From Patescibacteria group bacterium (GTDB taxonomy: Bacteria; Patescibacteriota; Minisyncoccia; Minisyncoccales; Staskawiczbacteraceae): a stretch of 57,920 nt of DNA. Positions 3,788 to 55,855 of the stretch are shown one piece after another. The position numbers and the translations under genes were made by a program. Below the pieces are notes generated by a model. It was not told where the DNA came from. It ran no database searches and saw only the letters and a program-made list of their open reading frames with translations. The stretch lies in the NCBI GenBank assembly GCA_018829965.1, contig JAHJTG010000013.1, positions 1 to 57,920 on the forward strand, written 5' to 3'. Within the stretch, counting starts at the first letter, position 1, and each line of letters begins with the position of its first letter.

Positions 3788-4105
3788 ATGACAACCATTT
3801 TAACTGATGAAAATTTCGAAAAAGAAATACAGGATATAAATAAACCGGTTTTGGTCGATTTTTTTGCTACTTGGTGCGGACCATGCGCTATTTTAGGCCC
3901 GATTTTAGAAAAAATAGCAAATGAATTAAAAGATAAAATTGTTTTAATAAAAGTTGACCTTGATAATGTTCCCTTAATTGCCCAAAAATTTGGAATTGAT
4001 AGAATTCCTACTGTTATTCTTTTCAAGGCTGGAAAGCCAGTAGATGGTTTTATGGGATTAAGAGTAGAAGGGGATATTAAAGAATGGTTAGAAAAGATAA
4101 TATAG
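3788..4105 (+). CDS. trxA: Thioredoxin
   Basis: WCGPC active site, 105 aa. Confidence 0.92.
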   Translation: MTTILTDENFEKEIQDINKPVLVDFFATWCGPCAILGPILEKIANELKDKIVLIKVDLDNVPLIAQKFGIDRIPTVILFKAGKPVDGFMGLRVEGDIKEWLEKII

Positions 4106-4178
4106 GCGACGAATCGCCTATATATTTAATCGCTCGGTCGGAATAAAAATAAATTTTTATTTCTCCCTCGCTCATAAA
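4101..4178 (+). repeat. Leader cassette family F, copy 1
   Basis: Hairpin ATAGGCGA-CGAA-TCGCCTAT, then TATATTTAATCGCTCGGTCGGAAT..hairpin..TTCTCCCTCGCTCATAAAT. It ends 9 nt before ATG 4188. Confidence 0.8.
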
Positions 4179-4187
4179 TATAAAAAT

Positions 4188-4469
4188 ATGAAAAAAGATA
4201 ATATCCAAGATAAAATCGATGATTTGAATAAATGGTATGCTGATTACGCTAAAGAGAACGGATTCAAATTAAATCCCAAAAAAGAAATTACGCAAAAATT
4301 AATGAGAGGTTTATTGGAAAACGAGAAAAAATATGGTCAAAGATGTTGTCCGTGTAGAAGAGCCACGGGAGACAAAGAGACGGATGCAAAAATCGTTTGT
4401 CCTTGTTCTTACCATCGCGACGAGATTGAGAAAAATGGGCAGTGTCTTTGCGGATTGTTTATAAAGTAG
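4188..4469 (+). CDS. Ferredoxin:thioredoxin reductase catalytic-subunit-like protein
   Basis: CPC-x16-CPC-x...-C-x-C pattern (CCPCRR..VCPCSYH..QCLCGLF) typical of the FTR catalytic chain. Confidence 0.7.
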   Translation: MKKDNIQDKIDDLNKWYADYAKENGFKLNPKKEITQKLMRGLLENEKKYGQRCCPCRRATGDKETDAKIVCPCSYHRDEIEKNGQCLCGLFIK

Positions 4470-4481
4470 TATAATAAATAA

Positions 4482-4598
4482 ATATATAGATTTTTAAAAA
4501 TCTATATATTTGTGCGTTCGGTCGGAATGAAAATTTCGGTTGTTAAAAATAAAAACGTTATTTTCTCCTTCCTTAGCTCTCATCCCTTCCTCATTTAC
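4482..4598 (+). repeat. Leader cassette family F, copy 2
   Basis: Palindrome ATATATAGATTTTTAAAAATCTATATAT, then TTGTGCGTTCGGTCGGAATGAAAAT...CATCCCTTCCTCATTTAC. Confidence 0.8.
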
Positions 4599-4626
4599 AA
4601 ATATAATTAATAATCATTTTAATAAT

Positions 4627-5333: not shown

Positions 5334-5452
5334 ATAGAGATTATTAGTAATCTATATAATTGGTTCGCTCGCTCGGAATGAAAATTTCGGTTGTCAAAAT
5401 AAAAGTAAATTTTTATTTTTTCCTCCCTCAGTTTTCATTCCTTACTCGCTGC
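5334..5452 (+). repeat. Leader cassette family F, copy 3
   Basis: TATAGAGATTA-TTAG-TAATCTATATA, then ATTGGTTCGCTCGCTCGGAATGAAAAT...TTTTCATTCCTTACTCGCTG. Confidence 0.8.
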
Positions 5453-5476
5453 CAATTATTAACATCATTTAAAAAC

Positions 5477-7533: not shown

Positions 7534-7643
7534 TTCCTACCTTTCATATTAATCAGAATTAATAGTAATATTATTTTTAAACGAACAGGTTTATTTCTAT
7601 CACTATTTGTCTTTTCTGTCAAAAAGTATTGTATAATAAGCGT

Positions 7644-7791
7644 ATGCCCAGTAATACAACCTCCAGTAATTTTTCGCCAAACACGAAAATATCGGAAAAT
7701 TATCAAGGAAGTATATCTGGGTTCAAGCAATCAATACCACTACCTACGCGAAAAATAGTGTTTGGTTCTGGAGGTTGATATACTGGGTATG
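7644..7791 (+). repeat. Element K, copy 1: 148-nt structured leader whose closing helix contains the rlmN start codon
   Basis: ATGCCCAGTAATACAACCTCCAG pairs with CTGGAGGTTGATATACTGGGTATG. There is an inner helix GCCAAACAC/GTGTTTGGT. Homologous to 18927-19073. Confidence 0.8.
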
Positions 7792-8856
7792 GATTTAAGT
7801 AAGCTCAACGAAGTTTTAAAAGACGAACCGTCTTATCGTCAAAAACAGGCGCAAAAAGCTGTTTTTCAGGATTTAGCGGATAATTGGATGCAGGTACAAA
7901 CTCTACCTATTGAATTGAGAAAAGAACTGAAAAAGAGTTGTCCGCTAAAAATAGATTTTCAAGCGTCTGTTTCTCAAGACGAGAAAGTGATTAAAGGATT
8001 GATCACTCTTAAAGATGGATTGAAGGTAGAGACGGTTTTAATGAAGCATGGCGATAATCGAAATACGGTTTGCGTTTCTTCCCAAGTCGGATGCCCTTTG
8101 GGATGTGTCTTTTGCGCAACAGGGAATATCGGTTTTAAAAGAAGTCTTAGTATCTACGAAATTGTCGAGCAAGTGCTGTTTTTCGCCCGTTATTTGAAAA
8201 GCAAGGGACCTGCCCGCAGTGGCTTCGCCCGCCAGACACGCCGACTCGAGTCGCGCGGGCTGGCTACAAGCGATGCAGGCGGGGAGAGGATAACAAATGT
8301 CGTATTTATGGGAATGGGTGAGCCATTCTTGAATTACGATAATGTTCTGGGGGCGATACGGATACTAAATGATGAAGAGAGGTTTAATTTAGGCGCTCGG
8401 CATTTTTCTATCTCTACTGTCGGGATAATAGAAGGAATTGAAAAGTTTTCTCAAGAAAAACTGCAAGTTAACCTAGCTATTTCTCTGCATGCTCCGGATG
8501 ATAAATTACGGTCAGAGATTATGCCGATTAACAAAAAGTATTCTGTGAAAGAAGTATTAAAGGCAGTGGACGAGTATATAAAAAAAACAAAAAGAAGAGT
8601 AATGTTTGAATATGTTATGATAAAAGATGTAAATGATACTGATGAGTGCGCGAAAGAATTAGCAAAATTAGTAAAGAAGCCACTTTACTTCGTAAACTTA
8701 ATTTTGTACAATCCGACTGGCATTTTTAAGTCATCTGAACCCGCAAGAATTAAAAGGTTCAAAGAGATTTTAGAAAAGTATGGCGTACCGGTTACTCAAA
8801 GGTATCGTTTTGGTAAAGACCTTAAAGCTGCTTGTGGCCAGTTAGCGGGAAAATAA
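7789..8856 (+). CDS. rlmN: 23S rRNA/tRNA adenine-C2 methyltransferase (radical SAM) RlmN
   Basis: CPLGCVFCATG radical-SAM cluster and RlmN-like ends. Start moved to ATG 7789, since the track start 7762 lies in element K. Confidence 0.9.
   Translation: MDLSKLNEVLKDEPSYRQKQAQKAVFQDLADNWMQVQTLPIELRKELKKSCPLKIDFQASVSQDEKVIKGLITLKDGLKVETVLMKHGDNRNTVCVSSQVGCPLGCVFCATGNIGFKRSLSIYEIVEQVLFFARYLKSKGPARSGFARQTRRLESRGLATSDAGGERITNVVFMGMGEPFLNYDNVLGAIRILNDEERFNLGARHFSISTVGIIEGIEKFSQEKLQVNLAISLHAPDDKLRSEIMPINKKYSVKEVLKAVDEYIKKTKRRVMFEYVMIKDVNDTDECAKELAKLVKKPLYFVNLILYNPTGIFKSSEPARIKRFKEILEKYGVPVTQRYRFGKDLKAACGQLAGK
8209..8284 (+). repeat. GC-rich intragenic hairpin element, family GCI-1 (in rlmN)
   Basis: CCTGCCCGCAGTGGCTTCGCCCGCCAG...GGCTGGCTACAAGCGATGCAGGCGGGG, read through as PARSGFARQTRRLESRGLATSDAGG. 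Confidence 0.8.
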
Positions 8857-11725: not shown

Positions 11726-11843
11726 AAATCCTAAACACTAAATCCTAAATCCTAAATAAATTCAAAATAACAAATCCAAAAGGTTTTGAATTTTAAAATT
11801 TAGATTTTGAAATTGTTTAGAGTTTAGATATTAGAATTTAGGG
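11726..11843. repeat. Intergenic palindromic element family B (CCTAAATCC/GGATTTAGG words), copy 1
   Basis: AAATCCTAAACACTAAATCCTAAATCCTAAAT...centre...TTTAGAGTTTAGATATTAGAATTTAGGG. Confidence 0.75.
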
Positions 11844-11854
11844 CTTGTAATTGT

Positions 11855-12147: not shown

Positions 12148-12726
12148 ATGCACGATGCTACTTTGTGTCTTTTAATAAAACCTGCCCGCAATGCTTCGCC
12201 CGCCAGCAACGCTTCGCCCGCCAGAAACGCTGTATCTGCTGCGGACTGGCGTAGCGATGCGGGCTGGTATAGCGACGCAGGCGGGGATAACGAAATTCTT
12301 TTAGCGATGAAAAAGCGCGGTTTTGGAATGGGTAAATGGAATGGGGTGGGCGGAAAGCCGGATTTAGAAAAAGGGGATAAGACTATTATTGACACGGCTA
12401 TTAGAGAAACAGAAGAAGAAATTGGAGTTAAGCCGTCTAATTTAAAAAAGGTTGCATTATTGCGCTTTCGTTTTCCCTATGAGGAAAACTGGAATCAAGA
12501 TGTCTATGTTTTTTTAACTAATAATTGGGAAGGCGAATTAAAAGAATCAGAAGAAATGCTTCCGAAATGGTTTAAAACCAGCGAGATTCCTTATCAAGAA
12601 ATGTGGGATGATGATAAGTTTTGGTTGCCTCATATTCTGGCCGGAAAGAAATTAGAAGCCGACTTTATCTTTAAAGAAGGGGAGAAGATAGATAAGCATA
12701 CTATTAATTTTGTTTCAGAAATATGA
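12148..12726 (+). CDS. Nudix hydrolase (MutT-like)
   Basis: Nudix-box-like GGKPDLEKGDKTIIDTAIRETEEEIGV. Start moved to ATG 12148, because the track start 11998 overlaps the previous gene out of frame. Confidence 0.8.
   Translation: MHDATLCLLIKPARNASPASNASPARNAVSAADWRSDAGWYSDAGGDNEILLAMKKRGFGMGKWNGVGGKPDLEKGDKTIIDTAIRETEEEIGVKPSNLKKVALLRFRFPYEENWNQDVYVFLTNNWEGELKESEEMLPKWFKTSEIPYQEMWDDDKFWLPHILAGKKLEADFIFKEGEKIDKHTINFVSEI
12181..12286 (+). repeat. GC-rich intragenic hairpin element, family GCI-1 (in the Nudix gene)
   Basis: CCTGCCCGCAATGCTTCGCCCGCCAG...GCGACGCAGGCGGGG. Its reverse complement is near-identical to 15024-15111. Confidence 0.9.
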
Positions 12727-14264: not shown

Positions 14265-14660
14265 ATGCGTATATCAAAAAAATCACAATACGGCCTTCGT
14301 TCAATGGTTTATCTTGCAAAAAAATCTTCAAAAGATAACCCTTGCTCGATAAACGAAATCTCAAAAAAAGAGAATGTCCCTTTTGAGTTTCTGGGGAAAA
14401 TAATGTCTGAATTGGAAAAAGCGAATTTGGTTAAAACAAAAAAAGGAGTAAGCGGAGGATATTTTTTAGCAAAGTCGGCAAACAAAATTACGCCAGGCGA
14501 TATAGTTTTAGCATTAGAGGAAAATACCGAATTGGTTAATTGTTCTGGTTGTCCGATGGCAGGCAGCTGTTCCAGCGAAGATGTTTGGGACGAGGTTCAA
14601 GAATCAATGGACAACAGCTTGAATGCAAAAACTTTAGCAGACTTAATTAAGAGAAAATAA
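14265..14660 (+). CDS. Rrf2-family transcriptional regulator (IscR-like)
   Basis: MRISKKSQYGLRSMVYLA N-terminus and a C-terminal Cys cluster CSGCPMAGSC. Confidence 0.85.
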   Translation: MRISKKSQYGLRSMVYLAKKSSKDNPCSINEISKKENVPFEFLGKIMSELEKANLVKTKKGVSGGYFLAKSANKITPGDIVLALEENTELVNCSGCPMAGSCSSEDVWDEVQESMDNSLNAKTLADLIKRK

Positions 14661-14748
14661 TATAGAAATGGCTTCACCGTTTATATAATTAATCGTTCGG
14701 TCGGAATATATAAAAACGAGTTTTCATATATTCCTCCCTTTTTCATAA
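14661..14748 (+). repeat. Leader cassette family F, copy 4
   Basis: TATAGAAATGG..CCGTTTATATA, then ATTAATCGTTCGGTCGGAATATATAAAAAC-GAG-TTTTCATATATTCCTCCC. It ends 2 nt before ATG 14751. Confidence 0.8.
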
Positions 14749-14750
14749 TT

Positions 14751-16001
14751 ATGAAGCATGTATATTTTGATTATGCGGCGACAACGCCGGTTGATTCTCG
14801 CGTAAAAAAAGCGATGCTCCCTTATTTTTCAGAAAAATTCGGGAATACAATGTCTCTCCATAGTTTCGGCCAAGAGGCAAAATTAGTTTTAGAAAAGAGC
14901 AGGGAAACAGTGGCGGATTTAATTAGAGCTAAACCTGAAGAAATAATTTTTACCGGTTCGGCAACCGAAAGCAATAATTTGGCGTTAAAAGGCATAGCAT
15001 TTGCGAATCAGAATAAGGGGCATACCCGCCTGCATCGCTATGCCAGCCCGCATCGCTACGCCAGTCCGCAGCAGATACAGCGTTTCTGGCGGGCGAAGCG
15101 TTGCGGGCAGGTAATAATTTCTCCGATTGAACATCCTTGTATTATTGAAACTGCAAAATGGCTGCAAAAGCAGGGTTTTCAGATAACAAAACTAAAGGTT
15201 GATAAATACGGAATGGTTAATCCTTTAGCTCTTGAAAAAGAAATTAGGAAAGATACTATTTTAGTTTCTGTGATTCACGCCTCAAATGAAATCGGCACAA
15301 TCCAACCGATAGAAAAAATTGGAAAGATCTGTCGCAACAAGGGAGTATATTTCCACACAGATGCTGTTCAAAGCTTTGGAAAAATCCCCATTGATGTAAA
15401 TAAGATGAACATAGATTTGCTGACTGCAAGCTCTCATAAGATGTATGGTCCCAAGGGAGCTGCTTGTTTGTATATAAGAGAGGGTGTAAGAATAGAGCCG
15501 ATTTTGCACGGTGGAGGCCAAGAAAGAGGATTAAGGTCTTCAACTGTGAATATTCCTGCAATTGTCGGTTTTGCCAAGGCTTGTGAAATCTGCAAGAAGG
15601 AAATGGGGAAAGAAGCTCAAAGGTTGATTAAATTAAGAGATAAATTAATAAGGAATGTTTTAAAGATAAAAGGCAGTTATTTAAACGGTCATCCTCAAAA
15701 AAGATTGCCGAATAATGCTAATTTCCGTTTTGATTTCATAGAAGGGGAATCAATAATTTTACGATTGGATCTGCTCGGAATAGCTGTCTCAACCGGTTCT
15801 GCTTGTTCTTCAATAAAATTAGAGCCAAGTTCTGTTCTTTTAGCAACAGGCTTGAAGCCGGCAGAAGCTCATGGTTCTTTGCGCATTTCTTTGGGTCGCT
15901 GGACTACGGAAAAAGAAATCGATTATTTAATAAAAGTTTTGCCGGGAATAATAAATCAATTAAGAAAAATTTCACCGTTTAAGGTTATAAAATCCGCATA
16001 A
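14751..16001 (+). CDS. iscS: Cysteine desulfurase (IscS/NifS type)
   Basis: PLP-lysine motif SSHKMYGPKG and catalytic loop GSACSS. It contains a ~29-aa insert. Confidence 0.9.
   Translation: MKHVYFDYAATTPVDSRVKKAMLPYFSEKFGNTMSLHSFGQEAKLVLEKSRETVADLIRAKPEEIIFTGSATESNNLALKGIAFANQNKGHTRLHRYASPHRYASPQQIQRFWRAKRCGQVIISPIEHPCIIETAKWLQKQGFQITKLKVDKYGMVNPLALEKEIRKDTILVSVIHASNEIGTIQPIEKIGKICRNKGVYFHTDAVQSFGKIPIDVNKMNIDLLTASSHKMYGPKGAACLYIREGVRIEPILHGGGQERGLRSSTVNIPAIVGFAKACEICKKEMGKEAQRLIKLRDKLIRNVLKIKGSYLNGHPQKRLPNNANFRFDFIEGESIILRLDLLGIAVSTGSACSSIKLEPSSVLLATGLKPAEAHGSLRISLGRWTTEKEIDYLIKVLPGIINQLRKISPFKVIKSA
15024..15111 (-). repeat. GC-rich intragenic hairpin element, family GCI-1 (in iscS, inverted orientation)
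   Basis: ACCCGCCTGCATCGCTATGCCAGCCCGCATCGCTACGCCAGTCCGCAGCAGATACAGCGTTTCTGGCGGGCGAAGCGTTGCGGGCAGG is the reverse complement of the Nudix copy minus one 18-nt unit. Confidence 0.9.
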
Positions 16002-16495: not shown

Positions 16496-17690
16496 AGAGA
16501 ATAAACCCCGCATCAGAACATTCGGTTCAGTACGGGGAAAGAAAGTAATAGTGGCGATGTCGGGAGGTGTTGATTCAAGCGTGGCGGCGGCTCTGTTGAA
16601 AAGAGATGGTTTTGATGTTGTTGGTGTACATCTCAAATTTTGGTCAGAAGGTAAGAGTAGCGCAGAAAATAGGTGTTGCACATTAGAGAGCGAAAAAAGA
16701 GCGAGAATAGTTGCCAAAAAATTAAATATTCCTTTTTATGTTTTTAACTTTGAAAAAGAATTTAAAAGAAAAGTAGTCGGGTATTTTTTAAAAGAATATA
16801 GGGCTGGCAGAACACCTAATCCATGTGTTGTTTGTAATAAAGAAATTAAATTCGGTTTATTGATAGAAAAAGCATTAAAATTAGGTGAGGATTTTGTGGC
16901 CACGGGACACTACGCCCGCCTCGGGCGGGAAATCCCAAATCCCAAATCTCAAACCCCAAACAAACCCAAAACCCAAAACCCAAAACCTATAAAACTTTTT
17001 AAAGCCAAAGATGAGAATAAAGACCAGTCGTATTTTTTATGGCAATTAAATCAAAGGCAATTAAATAGAGTTTTATTTCCCATAGGCAATTATACTAAGC
17101 CTCAAGTTCGCGCTTTGGCTAAAAAGTTTAAATTACCGGTTGCCGAGACCCCGGAATCTCAAGAGGTTTGTTTTATCAAGAATAAGACAAATGATTTTCT
17201 CAAAAAATATATTAAAATAAAAATAGGTGAGATAAGGGATAAACAAGGTAGGTTGTTAGGTGAGCATCAAGGTTTATGTTTTTATACTATCGGTCAAAGA
17301 AAAGGAATCGGTTTACCCGGCGGTCCATATTATGTTTTAGATAAAGATATTAAAAAGAACATTTTAGTTGTTACGCAGGACGAAAAAGATCTATTAAGGA
17401 AAGATTTGATTGTTGGAAATGTAAACTGGATTTCTGGTAAAAAACCCCGCCTTCGCGAAGGCTATAGCGGGCAGGCGAAAATGCCGATTAAAGTAATGGC
17501 GAAGATAAGGTATAGGAATAAAGGCGCGTCAGCTGTCATTAAAAAAGCCGCCGTAGGCGAGCCTCGCCAAGGGCGGGAAAACAGAAAGATAAAAGTAATT
17601 TTTTCAAAGCCGCAGAGAGCAATCACTTCAGGCCAGTCAGCGGTCTTTTACCGAGGAGGCGAATTGCTGGGAGGTGGAGTAATAGAATAA
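16485..17690 (+). CDS. mnmA: tRNA 2-thiouridine(34) synthase MnmA
   Basis: PP-loop VAMSGGVDSSV plus CCTLE, TGHYAR and KDQSYFL motifs. It carries three repeat-derived inserts. Confidence 0.9.
   Translation: MINKENKPRIRTFGSVRGKKVIVAMSGGVDSSVAAALLKRDGFDVVGVHLKFWSEGKSSAENRCCTLESEKRARIVAKKLNIPFYVFNFEKEFKRKVVGYFLKEYRAGRTPNPCVVCNKEIKFGLLIEKALKLGEDFVATGHYARLGREIPNPKSQTPNKPKTQNPKPIKLFKAKDENKDQSYFLWQLNQRQLNRVLFPIGNYTKPQVRALAKKFKLPVAETPESQEVCFIKNKTNDFLKKYIKIKIGEIRDKQGRLLGEHQGLCFYTIGQRKGIGLPGGPYYVLDKDIKKNILVVTQDEKDLLRKDLIVGNVNWISGKKPRLREGYSGQAKMPIKVMAKIRYRNKGASAVIKKAAVGEPRQGRENRKIKVIFSKPQRAITSGQSAVFYRGGELLGGGVIE
16913..16990 (+). repeat. Composite in-frame insert in mnmA: GC hairpin plus family-B-like CCCAAA(T/A)C tract
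   Basis: CCCGCC-TCG-GGCGGG, then AAATCCCAAATCCCAAATCTCAAACCCCAAACAAACCCAAAACCCAAAACCCAAAACC, translated GREIPNPKSQTPNKPKTQNPKP between HYAR and KLFKAKDENKDQSYFL. Confidence 0.8.
17445..17475 (+). repeat. Short GC element family GCI-3 (in mnmA)
   Basis: CCCCGCCTTCGCGAAGGCTATAGCGGGCAGG. Related to 28046-28075 and 47874-47900. Confidence 0.65.
17547..17577 (+). repeat. Short GC element family GCI-4 (in mnmA)
   Basis: GCCGCCGTAGGCGAGCCTCGCCAAGGGCGGG. It shares GGCGAG-S-CTCGCC...GGGCGG with the rplF insert. Confidence 0.6.
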
Positions 17691-18883: not shown

Positions 18884-18926
18884 ATAGTGGTAGAATTAAA
18901 TTAATAATAATTAATATTTAAATAAT

Positions 18927-19073
18927 ATGCCCAGTAATACAATCCCCAGTAGTTTTTTGCCAAACGGGAAAGGAGCGAAAAACTATCGAAGGATGTGTCT
19001 GGGCTTAAACAATCAATACCATCGCTAACGCAAAAAACAGCGTTTGGTTCTGGGGATTGATATACTGGGTATG
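18927..19073 (+). repeat. Element K, copy 2: structured leader whose closing helix contains the SDR start codon
   Basis: ATGCCCAGTAATACAATCCCCAG pairs with CTGGGGATTGATATACTGGGTATG. The inner helix is GCCAAACG/CGTTTGGT. Compensatory changes relative to copy 1. Confidence 0.8.
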
Positions 19074-19913
19074 TTTTTAAGAAAAGCCCTAAGACACAAT
19101 TTTTGTAATTTAGTAGACAAGGTAGCAATTATAACCGGAGCCAAGCAGGGGATGGGGAAAGCCCATGCTTTAAAATTAGCTAAAGCGGGAGCTAATGTAG
19201 TAGTTTCTGATATCTCTCAAGAGGAATGCCAAATTGTTGTAGATGAAATAAAAAAAGCCGGCGGTAAGGCCATAGCAGTAAAATGCGATATAAGCAATAA
19301 AACAGAAGTTGAGCAATTAGTTAAAAAAACAGTTGAAACTTTTGGTAAATTAGATATTTTAGTAAATAACGCTGGTATTTGTCCCTTCAAGCCATTTTTA
19401 GAAATGACCGAGGAAGAATTCAGCAAGGTGATAGATATAAACCTTAAGGGATACTTTTTATGCGCCCAAACAGCAGCCAAAGAAATGTCCCGACCCCGAC
19501 CTGTCGTGGGTCGCGGATCCTCGACGGCTTCGCCGTCGGGAGCAAAATCTGGCGGAGCGATTGTTAATATCGCTTCAATTGCAATGGGGCAGGTGGGAGT
19601 TGGGTTTCAGGGTTTAACGCATTATTGCGCTTCAAAGGGCGGTATTGTAGCTATGGCAGAAGCAATGTCTTTAGAGCTGGCCCCGCTTGGCATAAGAGTA
19701 AACACAATTGCTCCGGGAGCGATTGATACTCCGATGGCGGCTTCAGTAAAGCAGGATATGAAAACCTTAGAAGCGACCTTATCGGGTATTCCTTTGGGCA
19801 GAATGGGCAATCCAGAAGAAATTTCCAACGCAGTTCTATTTTTAGCTTCAGATGAGTCTTCATATATTACAGGTTCAGTTGTTGTAGTTGATGGAGGTTG
19901 GCTTGCCGGTTAA
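19071..19913 (+). CDS. Short-chain dehydrogenase/reductase (FabG-like)
   Basis: TGAKQGMG, NNAG and YCASKGG motifs. Start moved to ATG 19071. It carries a ~19-aa GC insert. Confidence 0.85.
   Translation: MFLRKALRHNFCNLVDKVAIITGAKQGMGKAHALKLAKAGANVVVSDISQEECQIVVDEIKKAGGKAIAVKCDISNKTEVEQLVKKTVETFGKLDILVNNAGICPFKPFLEMTEEEFSKVIDINLKGYFLCAQTAAKEMSRPRPVVGRGSSTASPSGAKSGGAIVNIASIAMGQVGVGFQGLTHYCASKGGIVAMAEAMSLELAPLGIRVNTIAPGAIDTPMAASVKQDMKTLEATLSGIPLGRMGNPEEISNAVLFLASDESSYITGSVVVVDGGWLAG
19487..19543 (+). repeat. GC-rich intragenic element family GCI-2 (in the SDR gene)
   Basis: GTCCCGACCCCGACCTGTCGTGGGTCGCGGATCCTCGACGGCTTCGCCGTCGGGAGC (57 nt = 19 codons), with hairpin CGACGGC-TTC-GCCGTCG. Confidence 0.75.
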
Positions 19914-21168: not shown

Positions 21169-21173
21169 ACTAA

Positions 21174-21310
21174 AATTCTAAGCACTAAACTCTAAATCCT
21201 AAACAAATTCAAATGTTTCAAATTCCAAATTCCAAACGACGACGGGTTTGTGATTTATAGTATTGTGATTTGGGATTTATTTAGAATTTAGAAATTAGGA
21301 TTTAGAATTT
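21174..21310. repeat. Intergenic palindromic element family B, copy 2
   Basis: TTCTAAGCACTAAACTCTAAATCCTAAAC...TTTAGAATTTAGAAATTAGGATTTAGAATTTC. It ends 4 nt before ATG 21315. Confidence 0.75.
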
Positions 21311-21314
21311 CATT

Positions 21315-22636: not shown

Positions 22637-22808
22637 CAACACCCGGTGTTGTTAAATCAATTAAATCAACACCCGGTGTTGAACACCCGTGTTGTATAAA
22701 ATATTTGTAAAAAAGTACACAAAAGTAAAACAATAAAACAATTAGAACACTTCGCATTAACGGAACACTAACGGAACACCCGGTGTTCCGTTAATAAACG
22801 GTGTTCTA
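22637..22808 (+). repeat. REP-like cluster (left of the RAYT gene)
   Basis: CAACACCCGGTGTTG at 22637 and 22667, CGGAACACCCGGTGTTCCG at 22782, and degenerate half-sites between them. Confidence 0.85.
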
Positions 22809-22820
22809 TTAATAAATTAT

Positions 22821-23546
22821 ATGCCTTCAAGAGAAGTTCAATTTTATCCAGGAGAATTTTATCATATTTATAATCGTGGCAACGCAAAGCAGGATATTTT
22901 TTATAATGACAGGGATAGATATAGATTTCTTCAAGCAATGTATTTATCAAATAATAGCGATTGTTCTGTTCGGCTAATGGAATTAGAAAAAAATAAAAGC
23001 GGATATACCCTTGCCGATATAAAAAAAGTTTTTAATGAAGGAAAAATTTCTTATAATCCATTGGTTAGAATAAGCGCTGATGTTTTAATGCCTAATCATT
23101 TTCATTTGCTGATTGAGGAACTGCAAGAGAAGGGGATCAGTCGTTTTATGCAGAGGTTGGGAGATAGTTACGGGAAATATTTTACTATAAAATATGATCG
23201 TCCGGGCAGTTTGTTCCAGGGTCGTTTTAAGGCAGTTCATATAAAAAATGACGATCAACTTAGATATTTATTGGCTTATATTAATGCGATAAACCCGGCG
23301 CAATTAATAGAACCAAAAATTAAAGAAAAAGGTATTGAGGATTTCCAAAAAATATTAGAAGGAATAAATAAATATTCATGGGGTACTCATTTTGAATATA
23401 TGGGCAAGAGAGAATCTGCTATTATTGATAAAGGATTATTGGGAAAAATTTTTTCAACTCCAGAAATTTATTACGAATTTATCAAAGAAATTTTACATGG
23501 GAAAGAAGATATGTGGAGCCCCATAGAAGGATTAATGCTTGATTGA
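22821..23546 (+). CDS. IS200/IS605-like HUH Y1 transposase, REP-associated tyrosine transposase (RAYT)-like
   Basis: HUH motif LMPNHFHLLIEE, Tyr motif LAYINAINPA, N-terminal FYHIYNRGN. Confidence 0.75.
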   Translation: MPSREVQFYPGEFYHIYNRGNAKQDIFYNDRDRYRFLQAMYLSNNSDCSVRLMELEKNKSGYTLADIKKVFNEGKISYNPLVRISADVLMPNHFHLLIEELQEKGISRFMQRLGDSYGKYFTIKYDRPGSLFQGRFKAVHIKNDDQLRYLLAYINAINPAQLIEPKIKEKGIEDFQKILEGINKYSWGTHFEYMGKRESAIIDKGLLGKIFSTPEIYYEFIKEILHGKEDMWSPIEGLMLD

Positions 23547-23554
23547 TTGAAAAT

Positions 23555-23670
23555 GGTGTTTCAACACCCGGTGTTGAACACCAGGGAATCAACACCCGGT
23601 GTTGATTGAACGCCCCTCAACACCCGAAACGCTCAACACGAATACTCAACACCCGGTGTTGAACACCCGA
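23555..23670 (+). repeat. REP-like cluster (right of the RAYT gene)
   Basis: TCAACACCCGGTGTTGA at 23561, 23589 and 23646, plus half-sites CAACACCCGAAAC and GAACACCCGAAAA. Confidence 0.85.
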
Positions 23671-23796
23671 AAATTTATAACCGGTACCAATTTTTTTAAC
23701 AAAATACTTGGCTTGACAGAGATTTTTATGGTAAAATATATTAATTATAAGCATATTTTGGGATTAAGAACTCCCAGAAGTTTTATTGCATAAAAA

Positions 23797-31448: not shown

Positions 31449-31500
31449 CGGTGTTCAACACCCGGTGTTGCGGAGTGGTGCGTTCAACACCCGGTGTTGC
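31449..31500 (+). repeat. REP-like pair
   Basis: CAACACCCGGTGTTG at 31456 and 31485, both preceded by GTGTT/GCGTT. Confidence 0.85.
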
Positions 31501-41154: not shown

Positions 41155-41230
41155 ATATGAACTTCGTTCATATAATTACGTCGCTCGGTCGGAATGAAAA
41201 TAAATTTTCACTCCTCCTTCGTTAGTAATT
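41155..41230 (+). repeat. Leader cassette family F, copy 5 (orphan, no downstream plus-strand gene)
   Basis: ATATGAAC-TTC-GTTCATAT, then AATTACGTCGCTCGGTCGGAATGAAAAT-AA-ATTTTCACTCCTCCTTCGTTAGTAATT. Confidence 0.75.
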
Positions 41231-41259
41231 ATAGAAAGTAGAAAATAGAATTTTGAAAA

Positions 41260-41517: not shown

Positions 41518-41715
41518 CTTAAGCCCTTTCGTATAAAAATAAAAAGAACAATTAATTTAACAGTATAATTTTATTAACAAAATAAACCATGATTGTCAGG
41601 ATTTTTGAAAATTAGACTATTCCAGAGTTAATTTCGCTTGACTATATCCCAAATATTTAATAAGATAACAGATATTGTTTAAAAATTAAAAAATTAATAA
41701 TTAATTAAAAATATT

Positions 41716-41833
41716 ATAGAGGCGATAAATCGCCTATATATTTAATCGCTCAGTCAGAATGAAAGTTTCGGTCGTCGAAAATAACTTTGTTATTTTCTCC
41801 CTTCCTCAGTTTTCATTCTTTCTTCGCTCATAA
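41716..41833 (+). repeat. Leader cassette family F, copy 6 (upstream of tuf)
   Basis: AGGCGA-TAAA-TCGCCT, then ATATATTTAATCGCTCAGTCAGAATGAAAGT...TTTTCATTCTTTCTTCGCTCATAAAT. It ends 2 nt before ATG 41836. Confidence 0.8.
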
Positions 41834-41835
41834 AT

Positions 41836-43032
41836 ATGGCAGTAGAAAAATTCGAGAGGTCAAAACCTCATATAAATATCGGTACCATTGGTCACGTTGA
41901 CCATGGCAAAACCACTTTATCGGCCGCAATTATGAAGATTTCAAAATTGCGCGGTTTTAAGTGTTCGGATAAGAGCGTTGATCAAATCGACGCATCTCCG
42001 GAAGAAAAAGCAAGAGGGGTGACGATTTCAATTACTCACTTAGAATTTGAAACAGAAAAAAGGCATTATGCTTTGATTGATTGCCCGGGTCACGCTGACT
42101 ATATTAAAAATATGATTACAGGAGCTGCCCAAATGGACGGCGCGATTTTATTAGTTTCTGCCCCAGATGGGCCAATGCCTCAAACAAAAGAGCATGTTCT
42201 TTTAGCCCGTCAGGTTGGTTTGCCAACCTTAGTTGTCTTTTTGAATAAAGTTGACCAAGTTGATGACCCAGAAATTTTAGAATTAGTTGAATCAGAGGTA
42301 AAAGAATTATTGAAGAAATATAAATATCCTGGAGATGAAATTCCTATTATAAGGGGTTCAGCTTTGAAGGCTTTAGAAGCTAAATCAGCTGATGATGAAA
42401 ATGCAAAGTGTATTATTCAATTGTTAGACGCAGTAGACAACTATATTCCCGAACCTTCCAGAGAATTAGATAAACCTTTTATTATGGCAGTTGAAGATGT
42501 TTTCTCAATTGAAGGTAGGGGAACAGTAGCTACGGGAAGAATTGAAAGAGGTATTGTCAAATCTAATGAAGAAGTAGAAATAGTCGGTATTAAACCAACT
42601 TCAAAAACAGTCGTGGTTTCAGTTGAAATGTTTAATAAGTCCTTAGATGAGGGAAGAGCGGGCGATAATGTAGGCTTGCTTTTGAGGGGTATTAAAAAAG
42701 AAGATATTGAAAGAGGTCAGGTTTTGGCTAAAGCCGGTTCAATTACTCCTCACACTGAATTTGAAGGCGAAGTTTATGTTTTAACAAAAGAAGAAGGCGG
42801 TCGTCATACCCCGTTCTTTTCAGGTTATAAGCCACAACTTTATATTAGAACAACTGATATTACTGGTGACGTAACATTGCCAGCAGGAACTGAAATGGTA
42901 ATGCCAGGTGATACCGCCAATTTAACAGTTAAATTAATCGCCCCAGTTGCATTAGAAGAAAAACAAAGATTTGCGATTAGAGAAGGAGGCAAAACAGTCG
43001 GCGCAGGAGTAGTTACCAAAATTATCAAATAA
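41836..43032 (+). CDS. tuf: Elongation factor Tu
   Basis: [22 protein letters not shown]. Confidence 0.97.
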
Positions 43033-43035
43033 TTT

Positions 43036-43170
43036 TGGAAATCCCAAATCCAAAATCCTAAATTCTAAACAAATCCAAATATCAAAATCAAAAATCCAAA
43101 ACACGTTTTGAATTTTGAAAATTTGAGTTTTGAACTTATTTAGGATTTAGTGCTTAGTATTTAGAATTTC
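43036..43170. repeat. Intergenic palindromic element family B, copy 3
   Basis: GGAAATCCCAAATCCAAAATCCTAAATTCTAAAC...AAACACGTTTTG...TTTAGGATTTAGTGCTTAGTATTTAGAATTTC. Confidence 0.75.
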
Positions 43171-43190
43171 AAAAAATTAGATTTTTTGTC

Positions 43191-43724: not shown

Positions 43725-43806
43725 TATATGGATAGTGAAGCTATCCATATAATTAATCGTTCGGTCGGAATGATAATGAATTCTCATCCCTTCCTCACTC
43801 ATAATT
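43725..43806 (+). repeat. Leader cassette family F, copy 7 (upstream of rplC)
   Basis: TATATGGATAG-TGAA-CTATCCATATA, then ATTAATCGTTCGGTCGGAATGATAATGAATTCTCATCCCTTCCTCACTCATAATT. Confidence 0.8.
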
Positions 43807-43813
43807 ATAAAAA

Positions 43814-44452
43814 ATGAAATTTATTCTTGGTCAAAAAATTGGAATGTCACAATTATTCGGTAAGGATAGCAAAGTGGCGCCAGTAACCCTGATTGAAGTC
43901 GGGCCTTGTTATGTTTTACAGAAAAAGACTAAAGAGAAAGATGGATATGAAGCGCTTCAAATAGGATTTAATAAAATTGAGAAAAAGAATAAGATTTTAA
44001 AATCTCAAAAAGGAAAAGAGTACAAATATATAAAAGAGTACCGATTGCAAAGCAATCGAGTATCCTCAATAGAATCGGGACAAAATATAAAAGATCCTTT
44101 AGATATTAAAGTCGGAGATAAGATTGATGTATCAATTTTTAAAGAAGGAGACAAAGTAAAGATTGCTGGTATTTCTAAAGGAAAAGGTTTTCAGGGAGCA
44201 ATAAAAATGTGGAACTTTGCCGGGAAGTTTGCTTCGCACGGCGTAAAGCACGAGCACAGAAGCATAGGATCAATCGGCGGTCGTTTTCCACAAAGAGTTG
44301 TTCCGGGAAAGAAAATGCCGGGTCGTATGGGAGGGGAAAGAATAACAGTAAAAAATTTAGAAATAATGAAAATTGATTTGGAAAACAATTTATTAATAAT
44401 TAAAGGAGCGGTTTCGGGGAGAAAGGGAACTTTGTTAGAGATTAAAGGATAA
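43814..44452 (+). CDS. rplC: 50S ribosomal protein L3
   Basis: FKEGDKVKIAGISKGKGFQG...HRSIGSIG. Confidence 0.92.
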   Translation: MKFILGQKIGMSQLFGKDSKVAPVTLIEVGPCYVLQKKTKEKDGYEALQIGFNKIEKKNKILKSQKGKEYKYIKEYRLQSNRVSSIESGQNIKDPLDIKVGDKIDVSIFKEGDKVKIAGISKGKGFQGAIKMWNFAGKFASHGVKHEHRSIGSIGGRFPQRVVPGKKMPGRMGGERITVKNLEIMKIDLENNLLIIKGAVSGRKGTLLEIKG

Positions 44453-49425: not shown

Positions 49426-49611
49426 ATGAAAGCAAGTGAATTAAAAAAGAAAAATAAAAAGGAGCTTGAAAAGGATTTGGAAAAATTGAAAGAGAATTTG
49501 AGCGGTCTTCGTTTTAAGCTTGCTGCCAATAAGTTAAAGAATGTTAGGGAAGTAAGGAATATAAAGAAAGATATTGCCAGAATATTAACCATATTAAAAA
49601 TGAAATCCTAA
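49426..49611 (+). CDS. rpmC: 50S ribosomal protein L29
   Basis: 61 aa, ELKKKNKKELEKDLEKLKENL...NKLKNVREVR. The last codons and the stop lie in repeat B4. Confidence 0.85.
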   Translation: MKASELKKKNKKELEKDLEKLKENLSGLRFKLAANKLKNVREVRNIKKDIARILTILKMKS

Positions 49612-49717
49612 ATCCTAAATTCTAAATCCTAAATAAATTCAAATATAAAAGTTCAAAATCAAAAATGTTTAGAATTTAGAAATTAGAGCTTAGAATTTCT
49701 TTTACGAAGTAAAAGTA
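49603..49717. repeat. Intergenic palindromic element family B, copy 4
   Basis: AAATCCTAAATCCTAAATTCTAAATCCTAAAT...TTTAGAATTTAGAAATTAGAGCTTAGAATTTC plus terminal hairpin CTTTTAC-GAA-GTAAAAG. Confidence 0.8.
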
Positions 49718-52897: not shown

Positions 52898-53335
52898 ATG
52901 AGTATAAAAAGTCAAAAAAGGCAAAGACGCCATAAAAAGATAAGAGCAAGAATAAAAGGCACGGCTAAAAGGCCGAGACTTTGTGTTTTTAAGTCCTCAC
53001 AACATATTTATGCTCAATTGATAGATGATGATAAAAATAATGTTATAGTCTTAGTTAGCGATTTTGATGTCAAGAAATCTTCAAAACAGAGTCCTGCCCG
53101 CATTGCTACGCCAGCCCGCATTGCTACGCAAAGCGTTGCAGGCGGGCAAAGCGTTGCTGGCGTGGTAAAGCGAGGGAATAAAGAAAATAATTCCTTTGAA
53201 GTAGGTAAGTTAATAGCAGAAAAAGCTAAAGAATTAAAAATTACAGAAGTAGTTTTTGACCGCGGAGGTTTTGTATTCCACGGGAGGATAAAAGCAGTTG
53301 CTGATGGAGCTAGAGAAGGCGGACTTAAGTTTTAA
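52898..53335 (+). CDS. rplR: 50S ribosomal protein L18 (with a ~25-aa insert)
   Basis: RRHKKIRARIKGT and FDRGGFVFHGRIKAVADGAREGGLKF. Confidence 0.92.
   Translation: MSIKSQKRQRRHKKIRARIKGTAKRPRLCVFKSSQHIYAQLIDDDKNNVIVLVSDFDVKKSSKQSPARIATPARIATQSVAGGQSVAGVVKRGNKENNSFEVGKLIAEKAKELKITEVVFDRGGFVFHGRIKAVADGAREGGLKF
53093..53166 (+). repeat. GC-rich intragenic hairpin element, family GCI-1 (in rplR)
   Basis: CCTGCCCGCATTGCTACGCCAGCCCGCATTGCTACGCAAAGCGTTGCAGGCGGGCAAAGCGTTGCTGGCGTGG, translated PARIATPARIATQSVAGGQSVAGV. Confidence 0.8.
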
Positions 53336-54040: not shown

Positions 54041-54490
54041 ATGCAATTACAAGAATTAAAACCAACACATAAAGGGAAAAGATCACAAAGAGTAGGTCGT
54101 GGCGGAAAGCGCGGGACCTATTGCGGTCGTGGAGTGAAAGGTCAAAACTCAAGAGCAGGAGCAAAAATGATGCCTATGATTAGAGAAATGATTAAAAGAT
54201 ATCCGAAACTTAGAGGTTATAGACATTCAGGGGTGCCAAAAAATATTGTTGTGGTAAACCTTGATATTTTAGAGAAAAAATTTAAAATCGGAGAAACAGT
54301 TTCTCCTGAAACTTTGCTAAAATTAAGAATTATTCGTAATATAAATGGAAAGGCTCCTAAAGTTAAAATTTTAGGCAGGGGAGAGCTAAAAAAATCTTTA
54401 ATTTTTGAAAATTGTTTAGTGTCTGGCAAGGCAAAAGAAATTATTGAAAAAGCAGGCGGCACAGTTAAAATCCTAAATCCTAAATCCTAA
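54041..54490 (+). CDS. rplO: 50S ribosomal protein L15
   Basis: RVGRGGKRGTYCGRG. Start taken at ATG 54041 (MQLQELKP), since the GTG at 54026 lies in the repeat. The tail KILNPKS* is encoded by repeat B5. Confidence 0.88.
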   Translation: MQLQELKPTHKGKRSQRVGRGGKRGTYCGRGVKGQNSRAGAKMMPMIREMIKRYPKLRGYRHSGVPKNIVVVNLDILEKKFKIGETVSPETLLKLRIIRNINGKAPKVKILGRGELKKSLIFENCLVSGKAKEIIEKAGGTVKILNPKS

Positions 54491-54575
54491 ATAAATTCCA
54501 AATTCCAAATTCCAAATTCTAAACGTGTTTAGGATTTAGATATTAGAGTTTAGAATTTCTTTTGCGAAGCAAAAG
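54467..54575. repeat. Intergenic palindromic element family B, copy 5
   Basis: AAAATCCTAAATCCTAAATCCTAAAT...AAACGTGTTTAGGATTTAGATATTAGAGTTTAGAATTTC plus terminal hairpin CTTTTGC-GAA-GCAAAAG. Confidence 0.8.
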
Positions 54576-54577
54576 CT

Positions 54578-55855
54578 ATGTGGTTAGAAAAAGTCATTTT
54601 TCTTTTTAAAAATAAAGAACTGCGCAACAAAGTGCTCTTTATCTTAGGGCTTTTTGTTGTTTTTAGAATAGCATCTAATATTCCTATTCCAGGTGTAGGC
54701 GTTGAGAACCTACGCCAATTTTTTGATAATAATCAGGTTTTTGGATTATTAAACCTTTTCACTGGCGGAGCTTTAAGTAATTTTTCAATTGTTATGTTGG
54801 GATTAGGCCCTTATATTACTGCTACGATTATTTTACAGTTATTGACAATGATATTTCCTGCTTTAGAAAAATTATACAAAGAAGAGGGTGAAGCTGGACG
54901 TCAGAAATTTAACCAATACGGACGTTTATTAGGAATTCCTTTAGCTGCTTTTGAAGGTTATGGAATGATAACTATATTCCAAAGGCAGCATTTAATAGGC
55001 GCCCTTTCTCCGTTTGTTTTATTAAGTGCGATTATAACAATCGTAGCGGGCGCAATGTTTTTAATGTGGTTGGGTGAATTAATTTCGGAAAAGGGCTTAG
55101 GCAACGGTATTTCTCTGTTAATCTTCGCTGGTATTGTGGCTCGTTTGCCAATGTCTATTTTTGAAACATTTGTTACTTGGGACCCCTCCAAAATTCCGTC
55201 TTATATTTTATTCTTTGTCTTTGCCGTAGTAATTATTGCCGGAGTAATTTTAATAACAGAAGCAAGAAGAAATATCCCTGTTTCTTATGCGAAAAGAGTA
55301 AGGGGTAATAAAATTTATGGCGGTTCTTCAACCTATTTGCCGTTAAATGTTAATCCAGCTGGCGTTATTCCTATTATCTTTGCTCTTTCCGTTTTATTAT
55401 TCCCAGGCATGATAGCAAACTTTTTAGGAGGATCAGGGGGATTTATAGGCACTGCCGCTCAAGCTGTGGGCGCATTTTTTCAGAATGTTTGGATTCACGG
55501 AGTATTTTATTTCTCGTTAGTCATCGTCTTTACTTATTTTTACACGATGGTTACATTTGACCCTAAAAATATCGCTTCTAACTTGCAAAAAATGGGCGGT
55601 TTCGTGTCGGGAGTAAGACCCGGTGAATCAACAGCCGCATTTATAAAAGTTATCTTAAACAGAGTTTTATTCACCGGCGCTATTTTCTTAGGATTAATTG
55701 CTGTTTTGCCTTCAATTGTTGCTGGGCTTACCGGCGTTCAGGGTTTTGGTTTCTTAATTGGCGGTACAAGTTTATTAATTGTGGTTAGCGTAGTTTTAGA
55801 CACTATGCGTCAAGTTGATTCTCAATTAGAAATGAGAGAATATGACACATTCTAA
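54578..55855 (+). CDS. secY: Preprotein translocase subunit SecY
   Basis: 10-TM pattern, GLGPYITATIILQLL, GNGISLLIFAGI. Confidence 0.96.
   Translation: MWLEKVIFLFKNKELRNKVLFILGLFVVFRIASNIPIPGVGVENLRQFFDNNQVFGLLNLFTGGALSNFSIVMLGLGPYITATIILQLLTMIFPALEKLYKEEGEAGRQKFNQYGRLLGIPLAAFEGYGMITIFQRQHLIGALSPFVLLSAIITIVAGAMFLMWLGELISEKGLGNGISLLIFAGIVARLPMSIFETFVTWDPSKIPSYILFFVFAVVIIAGVILITEARRNIPVSYAKRVRGNKIYGGSSTYLPLNVNPAGVIPIIFALSVLLFPGMIANFLGGSGGFIGTAAQAVGAFFQNVWIHGVFYFSLVIVFTYFYTMVTFDPKNIASNLQKMGGFVSGVRPGESTAAFIKVILNRVLFTGAIFLGLIAVLPSIVAGLTGVQGFGFLIGGTSLLIVVSVVLDTMRQVDSQLEMREYDTF

Follow-up and report, generated by a model that had tools for sequence, protein, structure and literature searches.

Why do two unrelated genes of one bacterium begin at the foot of the same long hairpin? 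The question arises from a stretch of 57,920 nucleotides of a Patescibacteria group bacterium (GenBank assembly GCA_018829965.1, contig JAHJTG010000013.1, forward strand), hereafter called the window. A model that saw only the letters (the original prediction) had described two copies of a structured element there, one before rlmN and one before an SDR gene. It left two explanations side by side, a mobile hairpin that targets TATG at start codons and a translational riboregulator shared by unrelated genes. Our analysis leads to the first. Both copies are, with high probability, non-autonomous elements resembling MITEs (miniature inverted-repeat transposable elements), and they belong to a family that has spread through the Patescibacteria (candidate phyla radiation, CPR) and inserts on start codons. 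The element has every structural feature of a MITE apart from a known autonomous parent: it is shorter than 300 bp, non-coding and bounded by inverted repeats, its target duplication varies by site, and its copies are dispersed. The surprising part is the target choice, translation start codons across a superphylum.

Two copies and their empty sites

Copy 1 occupies positions 7647-7787 (141 nt) and copy 2 positions 18930-19069 (140 nt), both on the forward strand; the limits of copy 1 come from pairwise alignment, fold, inverted-repeat search and flanks. As originally described, the copies align over their full length (86% column identity, with the likeness ending at the flanks), although the start positions then given were off by one base. 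Each copy opens with CCCAGTAATACAAYCYCCAG and closes with its near-complement CTGGRGRTTGATATACTGGG. The terminal inverted repeats of copy 1 are CCCAGTA-ATA-CAAC-CTCCAG at 7647-7666 and CTGGAG-GTTG-ATA-TACTGGG at 7768-7787, and those of copy 2 lie at 18930-18949 and 19050-19069. The 20-nt end CCCAGTA-WWW-CAAYCYCCAG occurs four times in the window (chance 0.04), and there is no other occurrence in it at up to three mismatches.

Both copies are flanked by TATG on either side, as had been noticed, at 7643-7646 and 7788-7791 for copy 1 and at 18926-18929 and 19070-19073 for copy 2. The two ATGs at the 3' side are the called start codons of the downstream genes, namely ATG 7789-7791 of the radical-SAM gene rlmN (7789-8856) and ATG 19071-19073 of the SDR gene (19071-19913), which agrees with the earlier assignment. 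Both are the ancestral starts; the rlmN protein begins with MDLSKL, which aligns with MDLTKL of the orthologues in a conserved MDL(S/T)KL. The ATGs at the 5' side open upstream open reading frames (uORFs). In copy 1 a putative uORF of 44 codons (MPSNTTSS...GSGG, 7644-7778) runs from the 5' ATG copy to a TGA within the 3' inverted repeat and so stops 10 nt ahead of the rlmN ATG. In copy 2 the ATG at 18927 opens a uORF of 33 codons.

When folded as RNA, each copy is predicted to form one long hairpin, with -47.5 kcal/mol (z -4.5) for copy 1 and -55.9 kcal/mol (z -6.5) for copy 2. The closing helix of both hairpins takes in the flanking TATGs and covers the ATG. In the outer stem the two copies differ by compensatory changes, with CCTCCAG/CTGGAGG in one versus TCCCCAG/CTGGGGA in the other, and in the inner helix by a single A-T to G-C exchange. 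The Rfam search that had been recommended matched no family to either copy, at gathering or at permissive thresholds.

Orthologous loci that lack the element show that both copies are insertions. The closest rlmN orthologues (about 71% identity) lie in two syntenic loci, L125 and L123, without the element. Their start regions read ...ATTGTATAAT-AGAGAT-ATGGATCTAACT and ...ATTGTATAAT-GAATTT-ATGGATATAACT, and contain one (T)ATG each; the corresponding sequence in the window is ...ATTGTATAAT-AAGCGT-ATG|element|TATG-GATTTAAGT. The element therefore sits exactly on the rlmN start codon, with (T)ATG duplicated. For the SDR gene, three orthologues (L247, L248 and L249, with 86%, 77% and 78% identity) read ...AAAAAATATGTTTTTAAGAAAAGCC or similar, with one TATG and no element. 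The check for empty sites proposed with the original prediction thus came out in favor of a mobile element at both genes, and the genes that flank the copies are syntenic core genes. An empty rlmN allele of the same species was not found in the JGI metagenomes.

A TATAAT box at 7632-7637 on the forward strand, 6 nt upstream of the 5' ATG copy at 7644, had been read as a sign that the element may make up the entire 5' untranslated region of rlmN. The box is present, but it lies outside the element. Element-free rlmN orthologues have the arrangement TATAAT-N6-ATGGAT, and because the box is kept in L125 and L123 it is the native -10 box of rlmN, with leaderless spacing.

Both host genes also carry in-frame, low-complexity inserts of about 17-25 aa rich in Gly, Ser, Arg and Ala, located in rlmN at codons ~141-171 (~8209-8300) and within the SDR gene (19071-19913). 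These inserts are absent from most orthologues (rlmN 355 versus about 330 aa, SDR 280 versus 263 aa), and the rlmN insert is shared in part with the two closest relatives.

A family dispersed through the Patescibacteria

Further copies were sought in two scans. The genome scan covered one genome per prokaryotic species, and its pattern consisted of the outer 13 nt of each end, 95-125 nt apart. It returned at least 118 stretches, nearly all from metagenome-assembled genomes (MAGs) of Patescibacteria, in more than 10 candidate phyla. The second scan, of metagenome contigs, returned at least 120 stretches with 94 further distinct elements. In total, more than 200 copies are known beyond the two in the window, nearly all in Patescibacteria where the record names the organism; they carry helix-preserving double changes and lie mostly at start codons, where all but one have the same orientation. 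The family statistics given here are based on 125 elements from the genome scan (first set) and the 94 from the metagenome scan (second set), among the matches listed.

Carriers include Doudna-, Kerfeld-, Azam-, Wolfe-, Terry-, Portnoy-, Uhr-, Lipton- and Magasanikbacteria, Saccharibacteria and Parcubacteria, with up to about 17 copies per genome among the matches listed. Some matches are labelled Gammaproteobacteria. These labels are probably wrong, since the EF-G of these matches is 74% identical to that of a Kerfeldbacteria MAG. A single match in Lachnospiraceae looks like chance.

The elements are 126-150 bp long, and their coding content is limited to short, unconserved uORFs. The terminal inverted repeats measure 20 bp, with 17 of 20 positions complementary and a conserved mismatch of 3 nt. 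Positions 1-7 from each end are paired and invariant (CCCAGTA/TACTGGG), as set by the search pattern. At positions 8-10 the pattern admitted any A/T triplet, and yet ATA faces a non-complementary ATA in 125 of 130 copies of the first set and in 94 of 96 of the second. This triplet pair is the only conserved asymmetric feature and could set the orientation. Positions 11-14 are CAAC/GTTG. Positions 15-20 vary by subfamily and are nevertheless 95-99% Watson-Crick between the ends, and at position 21 pairing falls to 9-17%.

Covariation between the ends is strong. In an alignment of 103 pairs of ends, each of positions 15-20 has 16-60 double versus 0-2 single changes; the covariation score was reached by no shuffle, and controls in which the ends were slid against each other drop to 23-42% paired. 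The original prediction had taken the compensatory changes between the two window copies as a covarying closing helix. The changes are real, but the helix consists of the terminal inverted repeats, and it does not count as evidence for structure at the RNA level because it is strictly Watson-Crick, with 7 G·T versus 6 A·C mismatches in 875 pairs and no strand bias. Since mismatches are so rare and unbiased, the covariation fits inverted repeats or a DNA hairpin, and not a drifting RNA helix.

Between genomes the interior (about 85-110 nt) is hypervariable, both in its sequence and in its length, and it is common to the copies within one genome. Mobility is also visible in the arrangement of copies. 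One element is nested in another, with a CTTG duplication; neighboring elements in tandem arrays have one TATG in common; and copies at least 94% identical are found at different genes. An internal CTGGG, proposed to pair with the 5' CCCAG and so free the start codon, does occur in both window copies, and across the family in 21 of 125 elements versus 0 of 125 for its complement CCCAG. The suggested switch did not hold up as a general feature, as there is no general alternative pairing with the 5' arm, and family-wide the interior pairs better with the 3' arm than with the 5' arm.

A variant subfamily occurs in the Wolfebacteria MAG S40-20 (L020 4844-4986 and 5921-6060, L110 342-483), with the ends CCCAGTATTACAAC...GTTGTAATACTGGG. 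As these ends are perfectly complementary, the variant is without the 3-nt mismatch; it still lies on TATG start codons.

Target choice and gene expression

Insertion duplicates 3-5 bp of the target, mostly 4 bp, identical on both sides of a copy and dependent on the site. The first set comprises TATG (76), ATGA (10), ATG (7) and CATG (3), with AATG, TATGA, TATA, TAAA, CAAA, TCAA, TTGA, TGTG, CCTA and TATT as others. In the second set TATG (37), ATG (11), ATGA (6) and CATG (3) are again found, and the others include TTGA, TCAA and CACA. Duplications that contain ATG in the forward orientation, as defined by the ATA triplets, make up 157 of 219 (about 72%; 59 of 94 in the second set alone). The only reversed duplication of the ATG type is CATA at the uvrB start in L050, which gives 157 forward versus 1.

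These ATGs are start codons far more often than other TATGs. An open reading frame (ORF) of 80 aa or more starts at the flank ATG in 89 of 125 elements of the first set and in 55 of 94 of the second, compared to 23.7% of 5,576 other TATGs in the same loci. Overall, about 70-85% of copies are positioned on a start codon. The N-termini downstream are canonical for gatA, gatB, serS, recA, metK, eno, pyrG, GAPDH, ruvA, ftsE, era, mreB, IF-1 and uvrB, and for the ribosomal proteins S3, S6, S7, S12, S13, S16, S19, L1, L13, L17, L18, L20 and L25, among which are operon-internal genes. The targeted genes are functionally unrelated, with roles in translation, repair, cell division, metabolism and the membrane, and by our estimate the number of gene families hit twice is as expected from random choice among genes.

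The duplication leaves both sides of the element intact. The 3' ATG copy remains the start of an intact gene, and the 5' copy retains the original upstream context, whether a promoter, a leader or the overlapping stop codon of a preceding gene. In 5 of 10 elements of the ATGA class the TGA in the 5' ATGA copy serves as the stop of an upstream ORF, and therefore the duplication has preserved the overlapping stop and start. Two copies in one genome that are 98% identical carry a TATG duplication in one case and an ATGA duplication in the other, which indicates that the same machinery makes a 4-bp duplication in either register around the ATG.

Specificity appears to lie in insertion and not only in survival, because young copies are also at start codons. 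Among pairs at least 94% identical and in different loci, 13 of 13 lie on start codons or in arrays that closely precede one. A background expectation can be set with a coding density of 87%, where ORFs of at least 50 aa are counted as coding; start codons are then at most 44% of the TATG sites outside genes. Nearly all TATG-flanked copies outside arrays are at start codons, a figure that we counted from ORF categories and not by direct tabulation.

The commonest duplication away from start codons is TTGA or its complement TCAA, often inside TTGACA and in both orientations (TTGA in L046, L273, L285, L304, L309 and L336; TCAA in L085, L311, L354 and L359). Off-target tetramers in general occur in both orientations, TTGA with TCAA and CACA with TGTG.

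The TATAAT-N6-ATG arrangement at rlmN suggested that the element might target the transcription start of leaderless genes. Two observations led us to reject this candidate. The -10-like box of the SDR gene stands about 30 nt upstream, from which a leader of about 25 nt follows, and many insertions are inside operons, 4-15 nt past the stop of the upstream gene.

Together, these data lead us to propose, tentatively and at less than even confidence, that the insertion machinery recognizes start codons as such, in a fixed orientation and without a motif, and that insertion neutralizes its own damage by duplicating the ATG. The transcript of a targeted gene is predicted to gain a hairpin leader of about 145 nt. 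In its closing helix the region of the true AUG would be paired with the 5' copy. The element would be tolerated at start codons if ribosomes still initiated at the 5' ATG copy. Initiation there is proposed because the native context is kept, be it a leaderless 5' end, a leader rich in A and U or a coupling with the gene upstream. A ribosome that entered the 5' arm would melt the closing helix and transiently free the true AUG. An alternative route would be cutting by RNase III of the stem of about 24 bp with its internal loop; RNase III processing is documented for Correia elements and phage T7 sites. The 5' ATG copy is intact in 99 of about 105 start-associated unique copies (about 94%), and the uORF it opens begins MPSNTT... 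in the TATG class and reads MTQ-stop in the ATGA class. An in-frame N-terminal extension of the host protein was rejected (0 of 36 fusions). An outward promoter was also rejected. Its candidate sequence, the TGaTATACT of the 3' inverted repeat, is similar to an extended -10 box but stands 4 nt ahead of the ATG; native boxes of this type are most frequent at 6-8 nt and never occur at 4 nt.

Several points weigh against the mobile-element account as a whole. No extended DNA motif that could account for the specificity sets the targeted start codons apart from other TATG start codons. Full-length uORFs are only weakly enriched; 22 of 89 run in frame 0 to the TGA within the 3' inverted repeat and so stop 10 nt ahead of the real ATG, compared to 6 and 13 for the remaining sense frames and 19 for one of the antisense frames. 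The melting of the helix by a translated uORF is itself a step that we infer. No autonomous parent, with a transposase between the same inverted repeats, turned up among about 240 fetched loci or in viral contigs; where inverted repeats were paired at longer spacing, they proved to be noise or composite arrays, the viral contigs gave chance 14-mer matches only, and there were no multi-copy ORFs in the fetched loci. Moreover, MITEs do not usually keep termini of 13-14 nt unchanged across a superphylum, although this invariance is in part ascertainment, because the search pattern fixed 13 nt per end.

With regard to upstream regions in general, the called gene starts at 388-29095 in the window, like those in L005-L122 and from L250 onward, have almost no Shine-Dalgarno sequence and are preceded by A/T-rich regions. 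In these CPR genomes TGnTATAAT-like boxes of the extended -10 type cluster 6-8 nt ahead of the ATG, and because of this clustering a subset of their genes seems to have leaderless mRNAs.

Three other explanations have to be weighed against a MITE-like element that inserts on start codons. That the element is a host cis-regulatory RNA, a thermosensor, protein-binding or RNase III-dependent riboregulator that sequesters the AUG and has spread only secondarily, is very unlikely, despite features that would suit it. A very stable helix, 95-99% paired in all copies, has the AUG at its foot in every case, the 5' TATG copy is kept too, the internal CTGGG is strand-asymmetric, and interiors common within a genome could in principle be co-regulated by a common trans factor. 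Against this stand the hypervariable interior, with variable length and no conserved core beyond the terminal helix, the unrelated downstream genes, the missing Rfam match, the lack of a general alternative pairing with the 5' arm, and mismatches without G·U enrichment; transposon hallmarks are seen in the empty sites, the duplicated targets, the tandem arrays and the nested copy. The variable interior, the unrelated genes and the non-RNA covariation exclude a ligand-sensing or gene-class-specific riboregulator. A shared riboregulator as the primary nature of the element, the second option of the original prediction, finds no support. Rather improbable as well is a pure selection filter, under which a transposase prefers TATG or ATGA and only insertions that spare the reading frame survive, mainly at start codons, with no recognition of the start codon itself. 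The high coding density, the share of start codons among TATG sites outside genes, the absence of an extended motif and the fact that start codons in this genome are most often preceded by T at -1 would favor it, and ATGA duplications that spare an overlapping stop and start do look like survivorship. But the concentration at start codons corresponds, by a rough estimate and not by direct computation, to about 40-fold odds, and neutral intergenic TATG/CATA insertions, predicted in both orientations, are almost never seen. TATG is not preferred among insertions away from start codons, where TTGA/TCAA and CACA/TGTG dominate, and the survival of the reversed uvrB copy means that insertion in reverse need not be lethal. 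Pure survivorship becomes unlikely in view of the young copies and the ratio of orientations.

The remaining explanation concerns the enzyme. The element may move as a folded single strand by means of an HUH/Y1 transposase, like IS200/IS605 PATEs or REPINs, or a tyrosine recombinase, like integron attC sites or the CTX phage, instead of a DDE enzyme acting on the duplex, with the hairpin and its 3x3 loop being recognized and setting the orientation. We hold this to be doubtful, but less so than the two explanations above. It would account for the near-absolute orientation on a non-palindromic target, for a stem whose sequence covaries but is not conserved and whose pairing breaks off at 20 bp, with position 21 avoided (9% Watson-Crick), and for a conserved unpaired triplet between two helices, which recalls the unpaired central spacer of attC sites. 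Mismatches without strand bias fit DNA over RNA, and the window contains a Y1_Tnp gene at 22821-23546. However, identical flanking repeats that vary by site are the signature of duplication at a staggered cut, which IS200/IS605 elements do not make, and the off-target duplications are in both orientations. Beside the Y1 gene of the window lies a palindrome other than the element, CAACACCCGGTGTTG, and next to the copies neither an integrase nor a Y1 gene turned up. Among ORFs of at least 150 aa that recur between loci there was no integrase, in a check confined to recurring ORFs and without domain assignment for every ORF.

Known systems, other repeats and consequences

The most similar elements known to us are the Correia elements (CREE/NEMIS) of Neisseria, in which a co-transcribed long hairpin is cut by RNase III and alters the expression of the neighboring gene. 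The present element resembles them in its size (about 100-155 bp), its lack of coding content, its terminal inverted repeats (about 20-26 bp in those elements), its short duplication, its many copies beside genes and its predicted hairpin in the mRNA. The duplication made by Correia elements is TA, they insert in either orientation, and they are not known to be linked to start codons, whereas about 72% of the duplications described here contain the ATG of a gene, in an orientation of 157 to 1. Furthermore, the termini of the present element are invariant across a superphylum, and its parent insertion sequence is not known.

IS200/IS605 elements make no target duplication, and IS608 inserts at TTAC. 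Their small derivatives, the palindrome-associated transposable elements (PATEs), and the REPIN/RAYT systems share with the present element a small hairpin, and may share oriented insertion by a specific tetranucleotide and mobilization in trans by a single-copy Y1 enzyme; a Y1_Tnp gene lies in the window. Orientation by tetranucleotide is seen at ATG-type sites (157 to 1), and other tetramers are used in both orientations. PATEs have subterminal hairpins and neither end-to-end inverted repeats nor a duplication, and the present element has both; REPINs lie mostly at the 3' ends of genes, unlike the present element. Integron attC sites are similar in being imperfect inverted repeats (57-141 nt) with conserved ends, an unpaired spacer, a variable loop, strand and orientation specificity and a position next to an ORF start. 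They need IntI and the outer cores RYYYAAC/GTTRRRY and bound mobile cassettes. The present element ends in CCCAGTA/TACTGGG and, unlike attC sites, has syntenic core genes as flanks, a target duplication and tandem copies without an ORF between them. It lacks defining features of attC sites, REPINs and IS200/IS605 elements. In its choice of a recurrent, functionally defined site, by which harm is limited and the host gene stays usable, it is comparable to safe-haven elements such as Ty3 (Pol III start sites), Tn7 (attTn7), class C group II introns (after terminators) and the Rickettsia palindromic elements, which lie in frame within genes. To our knowledge, none of these uses the translation start codon.

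Several other repeats are present in the window. The Y1_Tnp (IS200-like) gene at 22821-23546 encodes 241 aa (Pfam 27.8 bits versus a cut-off of 23) and is flanked on both sides (22638-22705 and 23561-23685) by clusters of the palindrome (T)CAACACCCGGTGTTG(A). Further copies of this palindrome, unrelated in sequence to the start-codon element, lie near 31455, 35761, 36362 and 38668. The gene and palindrome look like a system of the type formed by repetitive extragenic palindromes (REPs) and RAYT in a CPR genome. As a mobilizer of the start-codon element the Y1 transposase was rejected, given the different, REP-like palindrome at its flanks and the lack of a homologue in the other loci.

Heptamer repeats of the AAATCCTAAATCC type are located at 11726-11848, 16928-17009, 21173-21312, 43037-43171, 49601-49700 and 54461-54592, often as inverted pairs between genes; the copy at 16928-17009 is inside the mnmA frame and encodes the low-complexity insert ...PNPKSQTPNKPKTQNPKPIK... 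Another repeat, TCGCTCGGTCGGAATGAAAAT...TTCCTCGCT..., is found at 4092-4198, 4476-4604, 5353-5459, 14655-14711, 41181-41249, 41708-41837 and 43757-43825. It lies just upstream of several genes, and also before the SDR orthologue of a relative (L247 1-60), and may be another mobile or regulatory leader element. In addition, an inverted repeat of 90 nt (12199-12288 and 15022-15111, 94% complementary) with GC-rich CCCGCC(A/T)GCA(A/T)CGCT units brackets 2.7 kb that contain a Gp49/HTH toxin-antitoxin-like pair and an Rrf2 gene, and a third related copy is at 53093-53129.

Our searches of the full-text literature, with the inverted-repeat sequences included, returned no published description of the element or of start-codon insertion by a bacterial transposon. 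If the insertion step itself finds start codons, the target choice would be without precedent in that literature, and it would raise the question of how an enzyme acting at the DNA level reads a signal of the mRNA level. An element that hits leaderless genes, genes with leaders and operon-internal genes alike would represent a new type of target selection, a bacterial counterpart of that of Ty3.

For work on CPR MAGs, the element is a recognizable mark by which true start codons can be told. It also gives rise to assembly breaks and to N-terminal extensions called in error, an example of the latter being the ORF listed with a TTG start at 7762. Translation initiation in the CPR is poorly understood, and the ATG-hairpin-ATG design is directly testable as a translational coupling device. 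If the proposal is correct, the element would be a natural, portable module for translation coupling in organisms that largely lack Shine-Dalgarno sequences. In the copy-richest genomes at least 16-17 genes, including those for ribosomal proteins, recA and aminoacyl-tRNA synthetases, carry the element on the start codon, and for this reason it must shape gene expression in the CPR.

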